From Candidatus Magasanikiibacteriota bacterium (GTDB lineage: Bacteria > Patescibacteriota > Patescibacteriia > Magasanikbacterales > UBA922): 57,522 nucleotides of DNA. Below are positions 566 through 32,964 of this stretch, piece after piece. A model generated the notes under the pieces. The model was not told the origin of the DNA. It ran no database searches and worked only from the letters and a program-made list of their open reading frames with translations. Position 1 is the first letter of the stretch; the number at the start of each line of letters is the position of its first letter. The stretch covers positions 1 through 57,522 of the forward strand of contig DOMK01000020.1 of the NCBI GenBank assembly GCA_003510435.1, written 5' to 3'. The position numbers and the translations under genes are program-made.

Positions 566-771
566 TAAAAGCGTTATTACCTTGGCAATCACCAAGGGAT
601 GCCCGCCTTCTCCGTCAGCTGACGGATTTGGCAGGGCAAGCTGAAAGAAGAAAATTCTTTTAAGAGGATTGTAGAACTTTCCGGGTAAGCCCGTAATAGC
701 TGTCAATGAAGCACCAAAGCAGGGTGGTACCGTCTCGTAAGAGGCCCCCGCAAAATAAGTGGTGTTTTTTT
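566..771 (+). promoter_or_regulatory. Ile T-box riboswitch, ultrashort stem I type
   Basis: Stem I CCTTGG-CAATCA-CCAAGG with ATC specifier at 588-590; stem II GAAAG/CTTTC with AAGAA/GTAGAA S-turn; IIA/B CGGG-TAAG-CCCG-TAATAGC; antiterminator AGGG-TGGTACC-GTCTC-GTAA-GAGGC-CCCC (721-749); T-run at 765-771; upstream of ileS. Confidence 0.85.
601..637. repeat. Palindromic element inside the T-box
   Basis: Perfect 16-nt palindrome TCCGTCAGCTGACGGA (611-626); 603-634 matches the reverse complement of 32561-32592 at 29/32 nt. Confidence 0.85.
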
Positions 772-1037: not shown

Positions 1038-4000
1038 ATGTACAATGCTAACCAAGAAGAACAAAAAGTTCTAAAATATTGGGAAGATAATAAGACTTTT
1101 GAAAAATCTGTTTCAGAAAGACCTGAGAGTAATCCCTATGTATTTTATGATGGACCGCCTTTTGCGACTGGTCTGCCTCATTATGGTCATATTTTAAGTT
1201 CGGTTATAAAAGATGTGGTTCCAAGATATATGACAATGAAAGGCTATCGCGTCCGTCGCCGTTGGGGTTGGGATTGTCATGGTTTACCAATTGAAAACAT
1301 TGTAGAAAAAGAATTAAAAGTCTCAGGCAAAAAAGATGTAGAAGAAAAATTAGGCGTGGATAAATTTAATGAGACTTGCCGATCAAAAGTTTTGACTTAT
1401 ACTCAAGATTGGAAAAAAATGATTAACCGAATTGGTCGCTGGGTAGAGTTTGATAATGCCTACAAAACCATGGACTCAACTTATATGGAGTCTGTTTGGT
1501 GGTCTCTAAAAACTATTTGGGAAAAGGGTTTGATTTATGAAGGCCGAAAAGTTCTCATGTATTGTCCACGTTGTGAAACTCCAGTTTCTAAGGCAGAAAT
1601 TGCGATGGATGATAGTTATAAAGATATTACAGAGGAAACGGTTGTGGTGAAATTTAAACTTAAGGAACAAGGAACAAGGAATAAGGAACAATTAAAAAAT
1701 GTGAATGGACCGGTGTATATTTTAGCTTGGACAACTACACCTTGGACTTTGCCGGGGAATGTGGCTTTGGCAGTTGGCAATGATATTGATTATCAAATTT
1801 TAGAGTTTGCAGATGACTATGATTTTTTGAATTCTAAAAAAGGAGATAAAATAATTATTGCAAAACATGACCATATTGAGAGTGAACTTTTTGGTAATGG
1901 TAGAATTCATATAAAAAAGACGGATTCTACATATAGAAACGCAAATTATTTTGTAAATTACAAAAAAAATAATATAGAGAAAGAGGTATTGTTTAGTAGC
2001 AAAGTATTAGTAAGTAGCGCAGACTTAGTAGGTTTAGAATACGAACCCTTGTTCGATATCCCAGCGATTCACGAAACAGGCAAAAAAGCTTGGTATGTGA
2101 CTGACGCTGATTTTGTTACGACCGAAGAAGGTACTGGTGTGGTACATACCGCGGTAGTATATGGTGAGGATGATTATAATCTTGGCTTGCAAAGAGATTT
2201 ACCAGTCGTGCCACTCTTGGATGATAAAGGGCATTTTAATGATAAAGCGCCAGAATTTATAAAAGGTAAATATTTTAAAGGCGCAGAAAAGGAAATTAAA
2301 GCTGATTTGGAAAGTCGGGGTCTTCTTTTTAGTCGAGAACAACACACCCACTCCTATCCACATTGTTGGCGGTGTGACACTCAGCTTTTTTATAATGCTA
2401 TTTCCGCTTGGTTTATTGATATTCAAAAAATAAAAGACAAACTAATTAAATTGAATGAAAAAATTAATTGGTATCCTGATCATTTAAAGCACGGACGCTT
2501 TTTAAATATTTTGGAAACTGCGCCAGATTGGAATATTTCTCGCAACCGGTTTTGGGCGACACCACTACCATTCTGGCGTTGTGAAGGAGTAAGGAGTAAG
2601 GAAAAAGGAGTAAGTTGTGATAATGTGGTGTGTGTGGGTAGCGTGGCAGAGCTGAAAGATAAAGCCGTAAATTTTGATGAAGTTTATAAGACAGACAAGG
2701 TAGAAGAGATAGACTTACACAAACATTTGGCTGATAAAATTAAATTAAAATGTGAAAAGTGTGGAGGAATAATGTCAAGAATTCCTGAAGTAATTGATTG
2801 TTGGGTAGAGTCAGCTAGTATGCCGTTTGTCGAGTGGCATTATCCATTTGAAAATCAGGAAACTTTTAAAAAACGTTTCCCTGGACAATACATTGCTGAG
2901 TATATTGCGCAAACTCGAGCGTGGTTTTATTACATGCATGTCATGGCGGTGCTTTTGTTTGATGATGTGAGTTTTGAAAATGTTGTTTGTACAGGAACAA
3001 TTCTAAATGACAAGGGTGAAAAACTTTCCAAATCAAAAATGAATTATACTGACCCTTGGAAAATCATTGATGAATTTGGGGTAGATGCTTTGCGTTATTA
3101 TCTTATGACTTCAGTCGTGATGCAAGCGGAAAATTTGTATTTTAATGATCGGGAAGTGCGTGATGTTTATAATAAAGTCATGAATATTTTGGATAATGTG
3201 TTGTCGTTTTATGGGATGTTTAACACGGAGAATACGGAAAAAATGGATTACACGGAGTCTACTAATGTGTTGGATAAGTGGATTTTGGCTAAATTAAATG
3301 TTTTGGTAGGTGAAGTGACAGAACATATGGATAAGTATGACACAGTTCGAGCTGGTAGGCCGATTAAAGATTTTATTGATGAACTTTCTACTTGGTATCT
3401 ACAATGTTCACGTGATCGTTTTAAAGATGAAAATGAAACTGATAAACAATTTGCTTTGTCTACTTTGCGTCAAGTTTTAGAAACTTTATCCAAGGTGATG
3501 GCGCCATTTACTCCATTTATTGCCGAGAAAGTTTGGTTTACAGTGACTGGTAGCAAAGAAAGTGTTCATTTACAGGAATGGCCAGAATTTAGTGAAAAGG
3601 CAAAAGTAGAAAGTCAAAAGGTCTTGGATGAAATGGATGTAGTGAGGAAAATAATTGAGTTAATATTATTTGCACGTGCTGAAGCTAAAATAAAGATTAG
3701 GCAGCCTCTGTCTATTGTTGAAACTGAAAATTATACAAATTTAGAACCTAACTCAGAAATGGTCAAGATAATCAGAGAAAAAACAAATGTTAAAGAAGTG
3801 AAGTTTGTTGAAAAATTTTTAGTAAAATCATCTAATGCATGGATAATAAAAGAAAATGGTGAACTAAAAATAGAATTAAATATTGAAATTACACCAGAAT
3901 TAAAAAAGGAAGGTCTACTTCGTGAAGTGGTTCGAACTATCAATCAAATTCGTAAAGAACAGAAAATGACTATAGAAGATAGAGTGGTGGTGGAATACAG

Positions 4001-4145
4001 TACTGACGATGAATTATTAAAAAGCGTGTTTATGGATTTTGTCGATGAATTGAAAAAGTCAGTTTTGGCAACAGAGTTGAAGGTTGGAGAGAGTGGAAAC
4101 GAAGTTGAGATTGATGGTAAAAAAATAAAATTAAAAGTATCTTAA
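1038..4145 (+). CDS. ileS: Isoleucine--tRNA ligase (IleRS2 type)
   Basis: YDGPPFATGLPHYGH (HIGH), GWDCHGLP, WTTTPWT, GTGVVH, DWNISRNRFW, KLSKS (KMSKS). ATG at 1038 is preferred over the track's 975. Confidence 0.97.
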   Translation: MYNANQEEQKVLKYWEDNKTFEKSVSERPESNPYVFYDGPPFATGLPHYGHILSSVIKDVVPRYMTMKGYRVRRRWGWDCHGLPIENIVEKELKVSGKKDVEEKLGVDKFNETCRSKVLTYTQDWKKMINRIGRWVEFDNAYKTMDSTYMESVWWSLKTIWEKGLIYEGRKVLMYCPRCETPVSKAEIAMDDSYKDITEETVVVKFKLKEQGTRNKEQLKNVNGPVYILAWTTTPWTLPGNVALAVGNDIDYQILEFADDYDFLNSKKGDKIIIAKHDHIESELFGNGRIHIKKTDSTYRNANYFVNYKKNNIEKEVLFSSKVLVSSADLVGLEYEPLFDIPAIHETGKKAWYVTDADFVTTEEGTGVVHTAVVYGEDDYNLGLQRDLPVVPLLDDKGHFNDKAPEFIKGKYFKGAEKEIKADLESRGLLFSREQHTHSYPHCWRCDTQLFYNAISAWFIDIQKIKDKLIKLNEKINWYPDHLKHGRFLNILETAPDWNISRNRFWATPLPFWRCEGVRSKEKGVSCDNVVCVGSVAELKDKAVNFDEVYKTDKVEEIDLHKHLADKIKLKCEKCGGIMSRIPEVIDCWVESASMPFVEWHYPFENQETFKKRFPGQYIAEYIAQTRAWFYYMHVMAVLLFDDVSFENVVCTGTILNDKGEKLSKSKMNYTDPWKIIDEFGVDALRYYLMTSVVMQAENLYFNDREVRDVYNKVMNILDNVLSFYGMFNTENTEKMDYTESTNVLDKWILAKLNVLVGEVTEHMDKYDTVRAGRPIKDFIDELSTWYLQCSRDRFKDENETDKQFALSTLRQVLETLSKVMAPFTPFIAEKVWFTVTGSKESVHLQEWPEFSEKAKVESQKVLDEMDVVRKIIELILFARAEAKIKIRQPLSIVETENYTNLEPNSEMVKIIREKTNVKEVKFVEKFLVKSSNAWIIKENGELKIELNIEITPELKKEGLLREVVRTINQIRKEQKMTIEDRVVVEYSTDDELLKSVFMDFVDELKKSVLATELKVGESGNEVEIDGKKIKLKVS

Positions 4146-32537: not shown

Positions 32538-32964
32538 TTCATTACATAGTAGATGATCGTCCGCCGAATCCGTCAGCTGACGGAGAAGGTGGAAGGAAAG
32601 TCCGAACATTCACCTGGTGCAAATCAGGTAACAGAGTAGCGGGTAACTCCCGTCGGTCGTAAGACTAGAGGTGCGAGCAGTGACGCCGAGACGCGAAAGT
32701 GTTGAGGCATCATGTAAAAGCGCAAGCTTTTTACATGATGAACTCTGATAGTGATATTAGAGGTGAAACGGCAAAATCCTTACTTGAATGAAAGAACAGC
32801 CTTTCGATTCACTTCGTTCGCTTAGAGTAAACTAATTGTTAGATACTTTGAGTGAATGAAGTGCAATTTGATTGGAAAAGTTAGTTCGCTAGACCCAGCT
32901 GGTAACAGCCTGGGCAGATAAATGATCGTCCTAGACAAAATTCGGCTTATAGCTATGTAATGAA
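32538..32964 (+). ncRNA. rnpB: RNase P RNA
   Basis: P1 TTCATTACATAG/CTATGTAATGAA; P2 GATGATCG repeated pattern; AGGAAAGTCCG; ACAAAATTCGGCTTAT near the 3' end. Confidence 0.92.

Follow-up and report, generated by a model that had tools for sequence, protein, structure and literature searches.

How does a T-box riboswitch whose stem I has shrunk to a small hairpin control the gene behind it, through transcription or through translation? The question is raised by the leader of ileS, the isoleucyl-tRNA synthetase gene, at positions 559 to 775 of a stretch of 57,522 nucleotides (nt) from contig DOMK01000020.1 (GenBank assembly GCA_003510435.1, Candidatus Magasanikiibacteriota bacterium), here called the window. 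Ultrashort-stem-I T-boxes are known from ileS of Mycobacterium tuberculosis and Mycobacterium smegmatis, and a short-stem form from Nocardia farcinica (Sherwood, Grundy and Henkin 2015, as relayed by PMC7583486 and bioRxiv 10.1101/2023.02.28.530422). These actinobacterial ultrashort T-boxes are described as acting on translation through a sequestrator of the Shine-Dalgarno (SD) sequence and as confined to ileS (bioRxiv 10.1101/2023.02.28.530422). A long stem I that binds the tRNA elbow has been argued to be necessary for transcriptional T-boxes, to catch the tRNA before the polymerase reaches the terminator, and a short stem I has been tied to slow, reversible translational control (PMC7583486). 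Judged from its sequence, the leader studied here is a T-box in a genome of the candidate phyla radiation (CPR). The reading favoured below, at a probability of about 0.6, is that it would sense uncharged tRNA-Ile(GAU) and control ileS by transcription attenuation, via a terminator helix that encloses the antiterminator.

Direct reading of 559 to 775 recovers, each at its predicted place, every element listed in an earlier account made from the letters alone (the original prediction), namely stem I, stem II, the IIA/B pseudoknot and the antiterminator. All features of the leader and its gene lie on the + strand. The ultrashort stem I (580 to 597, 18 nt as a whole) is a 6-bp helix of CCTTGG (580 to 585) and CCAAGG (592 to 597) capped by the loop CAATCA (586 to 591), in which the specifier ATC (588 to 590) is followed by the purine A591. 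Stem II (643 to 681) has a base of GAAAG (643 to 647) paired with CTTTC (677 to 681), the purine runs AAGAAA (648 to 653) and GTAGAA (671 to 676), and a distal helix (653 to 658 with 665 to 670). The conserved strands GAAAGAA and AGUAGAA, the latter with a nearly invariant AGUAGA, probably form an S-turn. The sequence CGGG-TAAG-CCCG at 682 to 693, followed by TAATAGC at 694 to 700, gives rise to stem IIA (682 to 684 with 691 to 693) and to the pseudoknot IIB (688 to 690 with 699 to 701), which together occupy 682 to 701. The antiterminator (719 to 751) carries the T-box sequence GGGTGGTACCG at 722 to 732, or AGGGUGGUACCG when read from 721. Its helix A1 pairs GGG (722 to 724) with CCC (746 to 748) and extends to 719 to 724 with 746 to 751, including one A.C mismatch. 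Helix A2 pairs GTCTC (732 to 736) with GAGGC (741 to 745) around the loop GUAA, and the bulge TGGTACC, UGGUACC in the RNA, lies at 725 to 731.

The host genome (G000) encodes a tRNA-Ile(GAU) at G000:C3:69874-69950, which ends in GCCCACCA with a discriminator A and an encoded CCA. The specifier AUC is thus matched by its anticodon, and the bulge UGGU by its ACCA end. A tRNA with the anticodon UAU (Ile, reading AUA) is also present at G000:C7:32418-32492; the specifier AUC fits the GAU species only. With a specifier that matches both gene and tRNA, an antiterminator with a UGGN bulge, and stem II with IIA/B, there is hardly any doubt that the leader is a real Ile T-box.

The proposed helices are well supported by comparison. 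A stretch of 221 nt has a folding energy of -72.5 kcal/mol, compared with -54.4 +/- 4.2 kcal/mol for shuffled sequences (z = -4.3). Across 14 relatives, the 23 pairs of P0 (a closing helix described below), the stem II base, IIA, IIB, A1 and A2 are paired in 95.6% of cases compared with 78.5% in shuffles, and pairing falls to 50% or less once the partners are slid. Both sides have changed in 18 of the 23 pairs, and the covariation score of 0.626 (0.270 in shuffles) is reached by none of 500 shuffles. In the same relatives, all five pairs of the stem II base have changed on both sides while 98.6% of cells remain paired, and A1 (92.9% paired) and A2 (94.3%) have changed on both sides in eight of nine pairs. 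When 78 leaders of the order are aligned to a covariance model of the core, IIA is paired in 99.6% and IIB in 92.1%; the IIB pair 688-701 alone occurs as AU (40), GC (14), UA (3) and CG (1).

This model covers 74 positions from the 3' strand of the S-turn to the T-box and was used for genome searches. It finds exactly one match per genome, always upstream of ileS, in 82 of the 151 genomes of the order, and these leaders make up a single family. By taxonomic family, matches occur in 43 of 58 genomes of f1, 35 of 59 of f4 and three of seven of f8. Of 150 further genomes of the class, 22 give matches; others lie upstream of isoleucyl-tRNA synthetase (IleRS) genes in Moranbacteria, Pacebacteria and Microgenomates records. 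By eye, the same leader was recognised at 14 of 30 ileS loci of relatives. As MAFFT placed stem I, the terminator and the loop of A2 wrongly when whole leaders were aligned, scripts that take conserved motifs as anchors were used for stem I, P0 and the terminator. A helix inside the T-box proposed by RNAalifold on such MAFFT alignments was rejected as spurious. A further pairing in the minimum free energy (MFE) fold, 573 to 580 with 693 to 700, was also discarded, as it clashes with IIB and is not kept in three relatives inspected by eye.

Each of the 78 leaders from the order contains a hairpin of 4 to 9 bp whose apical loop displays AUC and a purine; this count is partly by construction, as the script searched for ATC, while the fixed place of the hairpin after a conserved AAAGCG motif is not. 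Compensatory variants of the helix include CCTTGG/CCAAGG, CCTG/CAGG, CCCGT/GCGGG, TTTCTG/CAGAAA and GTGG/CCAC. The original prediction would have been refuted by an unconserved ATC loop, and the loop is present in all leaders analysed in this way. The AAAGCG motif is itself one strand of a closing helix, P0, which encloses stem I and had not been part of the original prediction. In P0, the 5' strand AGC (570 to 572) pairs with GCU (640 to 642), which abuts stem II. Its three pairs occur in the 14 relatives as AU:10 UA:2 GC:1, as GC:10 AU:3 GU:1 and as CG:14. In a swap test over the 78 leaders, native strand partners reach -4.55 kcal/mol and non-native ones -3.32 kcal/mol (p <= 0.0002), and variants such as AGCGC/GCGCU, ACGC/GCGU, GACG/CGUC, GGCG/CGCC, AACC/GGUU and GAC/GUC are observed. 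Many relatives carry a K-turn-like UGA...GA between P0 and stem I, which this leader does not.

The stem I of class I T-boxes is long, with a K-turn, an internal specifier loop and a distal double T-loop platform, none of which is found here. Instead, the leader has the hallmarks of the ultrashort-stem-I group: the specifier in a terminal loop, a short stem I, no platform for the tRNA elbow, and ileS as the regulated gene. Accordingly low is the score from the Rfam T-box model RF00230, whose stem I part matches nothing here. At the gathering threshold no T-box is reported by Rfam in the window, and at a permissive threshold the leader scores 17.9 bits (E = 0.11), far below the gathering score of 93. 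Of the covariance searches proposed as checks on the original prediction, the one with RF00230 left the leader below the cut-off.

Several features bear on the output of the switch. In 73 of 78 leaders, a U-run starts 0 to 28 nt past the 3' strand of A1 (median 13) under a strict rule; it is also visible in three of the other five. About 95% of leaders have such a run. By comparison, 13% of the 21-nt windows of this genome hold such a start. No GGAG-like SD sequence precedes the start codon in any of the 73 leaders, nor in this one. The sequestrator of the actinobacterial ultrashort T-boxes has no counterpart here, where the ATG (1038) follows the T-run, and thus the switch, by 266 nt. Among the relatives, 5 to 342 nt separate the U-run from the ATG, with 30 or less in 38 leaders, 31 to 100 in 17 and more than 100 in 18. 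Leaders far from their gene, such as this one and one with an inserted gene, score as well as the others, and the best cores include some that lie 170 to 460 nt away. Good cores far from ileS are as predicted for a device that acts at a distance. The comparison of leaders thus supports the original prediction of a transcriptional output, and transcription termination is, with good confidence, the probable output of the T-box.

The best terminator candidate is a helix around the antiterminator, first noticed in the original prediction as a possible pairing and now found to be conserved and co-varying. The sequence AAGCACCA (709 to 716) is complementary to TGGTGTTT (760 to 767), and the T-run of 765 to 771 is followed by A and TTT. 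In the RNA, the 3' strand UGGUGUUU (760 to 767) with its U-tract (U765 to U771, A, UUU) extends over 760 to 775. A709-A710-G711 pair with U767 to U765, and CACCA pairs with UGGUG. The MFE fold pairs 709 to 717 with 759 to 767, and the duplex energy is -10.9 kcal/mol. Class I leaders use the 3' half of the antiterminator as the 5' strand of their terminator; the helix described here shares no base with A1 or A2, and no downstream sequence in this leader is complementary to the antiterminator 3' half.

The enclosing helix appears in the MFE folds of 35 of 43 leaders of family f1. In the f1 swap test (n = 43), the 3' strand pairs with its native upstream segment at -9.06 kcal/mol and with swapped ones at -6.99 kcal/mol (p <= 0.0002). 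For the antiterminator 3' half plus linker, no preference for the native 3' strand is seen (p = 0.14). The groups for this test were set by taxonomic family, as grouping by predicted fold would be circular. Across genera, the two strands occur as GAAGCACCAA/UUGGUGUUUU, AAGAGCUACG/CGUAGUUUU, GUGCUACC/GGUAGC, AAGCGCC/GGCGUUU and AUUCACAG/CUGUGAUUUU. From these comparisons, the enclosing helix is a fairly likely terminator.

The 5' strand of this helix coincides with an element that is required for tRNA sensing in other T-boxes. In the module 5'-RRRxG-stem III-AA-3', the purines run along the minor groove of the duplex in which the T-box bulge pairs with the acceptor end of the tRNA. If this purine-string module is missing, the antiterminator does not bind tRNA appreciably, and the module latches only once the uncharged tRNA end is docked (PMC7583486). 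The related RAG motif has been described (PMC11297988), as has the stacking of stem III (bioRxiv 10.1101/2023.02.28.530422). In the CPR family, the module takes the form AAGxG-(GCCAC..GUGG)-AA, and its AAG is kept in 68 of 78 leaders. Here, the purine string and linker (709 to 718) read AAGCA (RRRxG, 709 to 713), CCA and AA. The purine string AAGCA...AA is thus present, with no stem III hairpin either in this leader, a point absent from the original prediction, or in about ten close relatives; in this subfamily (about ten genomes from several genera), stem III is reduced to CCA. Other relatives show GCCAC..GUGG or similar pairing at this position, and a stem III of at least 3 bp is found in 25 of the 43 f1 leaders. 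Where stem III exists, the 5' strand of the terminator consists of AAG and the 5' half of stem III. Both stem III and the long-range helix occur in 20 f1 leaders, and in each of these they have nucleotides in common.

A mechanism can be proposed on this basis. P0 would carry the 6-bp stem I, presenting AUC-A in its apical loop for decoding. The stem I domain would be followed by stem II with its S-turn-like purine motif and by IIA/B, with no distal platform for the tRNA elbow. The standard antiterminator would sense the acceptor end by pairing of its bulge UGGU with the tRNA end ACCA. Uncharged tRNA would pin the purine string, together with stem III where present, such that the terminator helix could not close and transcription would read through into ileS. 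Without a docked tRNA end, the purine string would be free, UGGUGUUU with its U-tract would pair with AAGCACCA around the intact antiterminator, and the helix closing next to the U-tract would stop transcription. That the terminator competes with the tRNA in this way, through the purine string or stem III, is a proposal to which slightly less than even odds are given. More tentative still is its generalisation to a second T-box logic, in which the terminator would capture the latch of stem III and purine string and leave the antiterminator alone, and in which neither stem III nor an elbow-binding stem I would be needed here.

Three other roles for nucleotides in this region were considered and rejected. 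ACCA (713 to 716) as a mimic of the tRNA end that binds the bulge, and UGGU (760 to 763) as a second site for the tRNA acceptor, both fail as other subfamilies carry GCUAC/GUAGC, GCGCC/GGCG and similar pairs at these places. A "long-loop stem III" of 3 to 4 bp, formed by CUGU (700 to 703) and GCAG (719 to 722), clashes with IIB.

A number of observations weigh against attenuation by the enclosing helix. The terminator helix and the antiterminator are both present in the MFE fold and share no nucleotide, so that secondary structure alone predicts no switch. The helix below A1 could in principle stack like a stem III and be compatible with bound tRNA. The subfamily of this leader lacks stem III, which is called indispensable in the literature. 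The stem at the U-tract is modest, with 8 bp and three G-C pairs. About one third of the order, mostly f4 and f8 and all without stem III, has a stand-alone hairpin before the U-run, for instance GCACGC..GCGUGU directly after A1 with an overlap of 0 to 2 nt (L095, L101, L094, L075, L054); this hairpin shows no evident competition with the antiterminator. In half of the relatives, the distance from hairpin to ATG is 30 nt or less, and a translational effect may occur where the ATG is near. Finally, two weak promoter-like sites in the spacer downstream of the leader (787 to 815 and 975 to 1002) could give rise to an ileS transcript that is independent of the T-box.

The most probable of the alternatives, although itself judged improbable, would make the enclosing helix a structural clamp, a stem III divided by the antiterminator and present in all states. 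The U-rich stretch would not serve as a regulated terminator, and any control would be exerted on translation initiation or on mRNA stability via the U-rich region without SD before the AUG. This would agree with the compatibility of helix and antiterminator in every fold and with the position of the helix, which sits where stem III would stack on A1 (bioRxiv 10.1101/2023.02.28.530422). It would also fit the 38 of 73 relatives in which the ATG follows the U-run within 30 nt without an SD, as the U-rich tract may be a landing site for the ribosome. However, the ATG is 266 nt off in this leader and 100 to 340 nt off in 18 relatives, including one with an inserted gene, and their cores rank among the highest-scoring ones. 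A helix that abuts a run of seven U is moreover the standard form of an intrinsic terminator, and if AAG (709 to 711) paired with the U-tract, the purine string would no longer be available for tRNA sensing, which depends on it.

Still less probable is a terminator formed by a local hairpin of C748 to C751 with G759 to G762, which would take one nucleotide of the A1 3' strand and make the long-range pairing incidental. CCGC and GUGG can indeed pair here across a 7-nt loop near the U-tract, and local hairpins are used by Moranbacteria-type relatives and by many f4 and f8 leaders. The hairpin has only four pairs, including a G-U pair, leaves two unpaired bases ahead of the U-run and is never chosen in the MFE fold. 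Within f1, the 3' strand co-varies with the upstream segment (p <= 0.0002) and not with the antiterminator 3' half and linker (p = 0.14). A decaying relic, with ileS driven by a promoter of the repeat-filled spacer, is equally unlikely: stem III is gone, a palindromic repeat sits at 601 to 638 and the spacer consists of repeats with weak promoter-like sites, but the core, at 71.5 bits, falls in the middle of the family's range, the leader has kept its specifier, bulge, pseudoknot and all helices, the layout without stem III but with conserved GAAGCACCAA/UUGGUGUUUU is common to about ten genomes of several genera, and the repeat lies at the exact site of variable hairpins in relatives.

Attenuation by the enclosing helix would set this leader apart from both known kinds of T-box. 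With the actinobacterial ultrashort T-boxes it shares AUC and a purine in the terminal loop, the lack of an elbow platform, the S-turn-like motif of stem II, IIA/B, the RAG/RRRxG purine string, the UGGN bulge, an IleRS2-type ileS and, by prediction, the sensing of tRNA-Ile. It differs from them in having no SD, an ATG 266 nt off, a helix with a U-run and no stem III, and in that the same architecture serves valS and aspS in CPR relatives. Its stem I stands on P0 together with a site of variable hairpins. With class I T-boxes such as Bacillus subtilis tyrS and glyQS (RF00230), the leader has in common a tRNA-dependent antiterminator, the T-box sequence, a hairpin with a U-tract and its position ahead of a synthetase gene, and its stem II and IIA/B resemble those of tyrS-type class I leaders. 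Unlike class I, it lacks a long stem I and with it the K-turn, the internal specifier loop and the double T-loop platform, and the 5' strand of its terminator lies upstream of the T-box instead of in the antiterminator 3' half. Nothing on T-boxes in CPR or Patescibacteria was found in the literature searched, in which a terminator wrapping around the antiterminator is likewise not described. The short-stem model of the T-box database TBDB was run on Actinobacteria only.

Other CPR leaders show how a short stem I can be combined with different terminators. Moranbacteria-type ileS leaders (L168, L170, L171, L173, L174, L178), which lie upstream of IleRS2 genes, have a short stem I of the form GGAA-nUAUCAAn-UUCC. 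Like the leader in the window, they contain a short stem I, stem II, IIA/B and the T-box; unlike it, they retain stem III, and the 3' strand of A1 is captured by a canonical terminator, e.g., UCCUUAUGCA..UGCGUAAGGA followed by U6-8. A short-stem-I sensor coupled to termination therefore does occur in CPR. In the same class as the host, the valS leaders L183, L185, L188, L189 and L191 show the same architecture with GUC in the loop, and the aspS leader L192 shows it with GAC; gene identity was confirmed for L183, L189, L192 and L186. The same core of stem II, IIA/B and T-box is seen in a larger set of valS (L183, L185, L187-L191, L193) and aspS (L186, L192) leaders, with a short hairpin that displays GUC or GAC, respectively; most of them have a canonical overlapping terminator.

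A second T-box in the host genome precedes the glycyl-tRNA synthetase gene (G000:C8:26501-26647 on the - strand, 1501-1647 of L001) and scores 36.6 bits against the cut-off of 93. Inspected by eye, it reads AGC..CGGU-UUGGCG-ACCG..GAGCU, i.e., it shows GGC-G in the loop of a 4-bp hairpin and is closed by an AGC..GCU helix, and it has the bulge UGGA. Its terminator AGACCA..UGGUCU with U8 overlaps A1 by about 3 nt, and the glyS ATG lies about 170 nt beyond it, after a TGnTATAAT-like box and a repeat.

The original prediction had further suggested that an actinobacterial-type sensor travelled together with an IleRS2-type gene. The gene is indeed IleRS2-like and MupA-like; the joint transfer finds no support, as the same short stem I stands before valS and aspS. 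Together with the glyS look-alike, these leaders argue against a short stem I imported along with IleRS2. By sequence, it looks like a general habit of CPR T-boxes.

On this reading, the CPR family would break two rules of the literature, by combining an ultrashort stem I with a terminator-type output and by using Val and Asp specifiers in relatives of the leader. Standard annotation misses the family. Reduced CPR genomes would keep feedback from tRNA charging on their synthetase genes. If attenuation by the enclosing helix is true, the latch of stem III and purine string can itself be the switched element. This would offer a compact design for tRNA-responsive synthetic switches and a direct test of the contribution of the purine string.

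The regulated gene, ileS, extends from 1038 to 4145 and encodes an isoleucyl-tRNA synthetase of the IleRS2 type (MupA-like, archaeal/eukaryote-like). Its product scores 804 bits against TIGR00392 (cut-off 621), 709 bits against the MupA model and 675 bits against the MupB model. The closest IleRS relatives in named records are from metagenome-assembled genomes (MAGs) of Candidatus Magasanikbacteria, and farther ones from other Patescibacteria, then from DPANN and Asgard archaea (about 45% identity). The host genome comprises 1.21 Mb with 35% G+C. Many public MAG records with an IleRS that is 60-73% identical are titled "uncultured Gammaproteobacteria" (e.g., L103, L108-L110) and are probably mislabelled Patescibacteria bins.

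Upstream of the leader, a likely promoter at 524 to 552 consists of TTGACA (524 to 529), a 17-nt spacer and TAAGCT (547 to 552), and the transcript is likely to start near 559 (ACAAU...). At least five relatives have TTGAC(A/T), 16-17 nt and a TAnnnT hexamer exactly 6 nt ahead of a conserved ACAAT. A consensus promoter scan did not pick up the site at 524 to 552, the -10 element of which is weak. The preceding gene ends at 496 to 522 with the hairpin CAGCTC-N8-GGGCTG and T6, by its form an ordinary intrinsic terminator just ahead of the T-box promoter; this, too, was not listed by the consensus scan.

The hairpin at 601 to 638 (core CCGTCAGCTGACGG, 612 to 625) is inserted at the junction of stem I and P0, outside stem II, and was also absent from the original prediction. 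It belongs to a palindromic repeat, about 34 nt long and of the pattern CCGCC-nnnn-CCGTCAGCTGACGG-nnnn-GGTGG, that is present seven times in the genome: two in the window (601 to 638 and 32561 to 32592) and five elsewhere in G000 (C2:81298, C8:7350, C8:19421, C14:38156, C17:64096). The second copy in the window (core 32570 to 32583) is inverted and forms the P3 arm of the RNase P RNA, which barely reaches its Rfam cut-off (100.5 vs 100 bits). The leader L004 from the same genus lacks the repeat of 601 to 638; in other relatives, the site is empty or holds an unrelated hairpin.

Between terminator and ileS lies an AT-rich spacer of 266 nt (772 to 1037), which consists mostly of repeats; parts of it recur on C17, C10, C16, C11 and C12, among them a piece of 116 nt on C17 and stretches about 70 nt long on C10, C16 and C11. 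The 24 nt that immediately precede the ATG (CTTATTCCTTAATCCTTATTCC-like) are found on both strands, at no fewer than 15 sites. In the leader from the same genus, the spacer is 114 nt long and unrelated. In L020 (G015), a small gene (MEGNKKNPLFIKADFF..., about 115 amino acids) is located between the T-box terminator and ileS, and L086 has a similar open reading frame. The product of the L020 gene presumably resembles the "four-helix-bundle / 23S rRNA intervening sequence" protein family.

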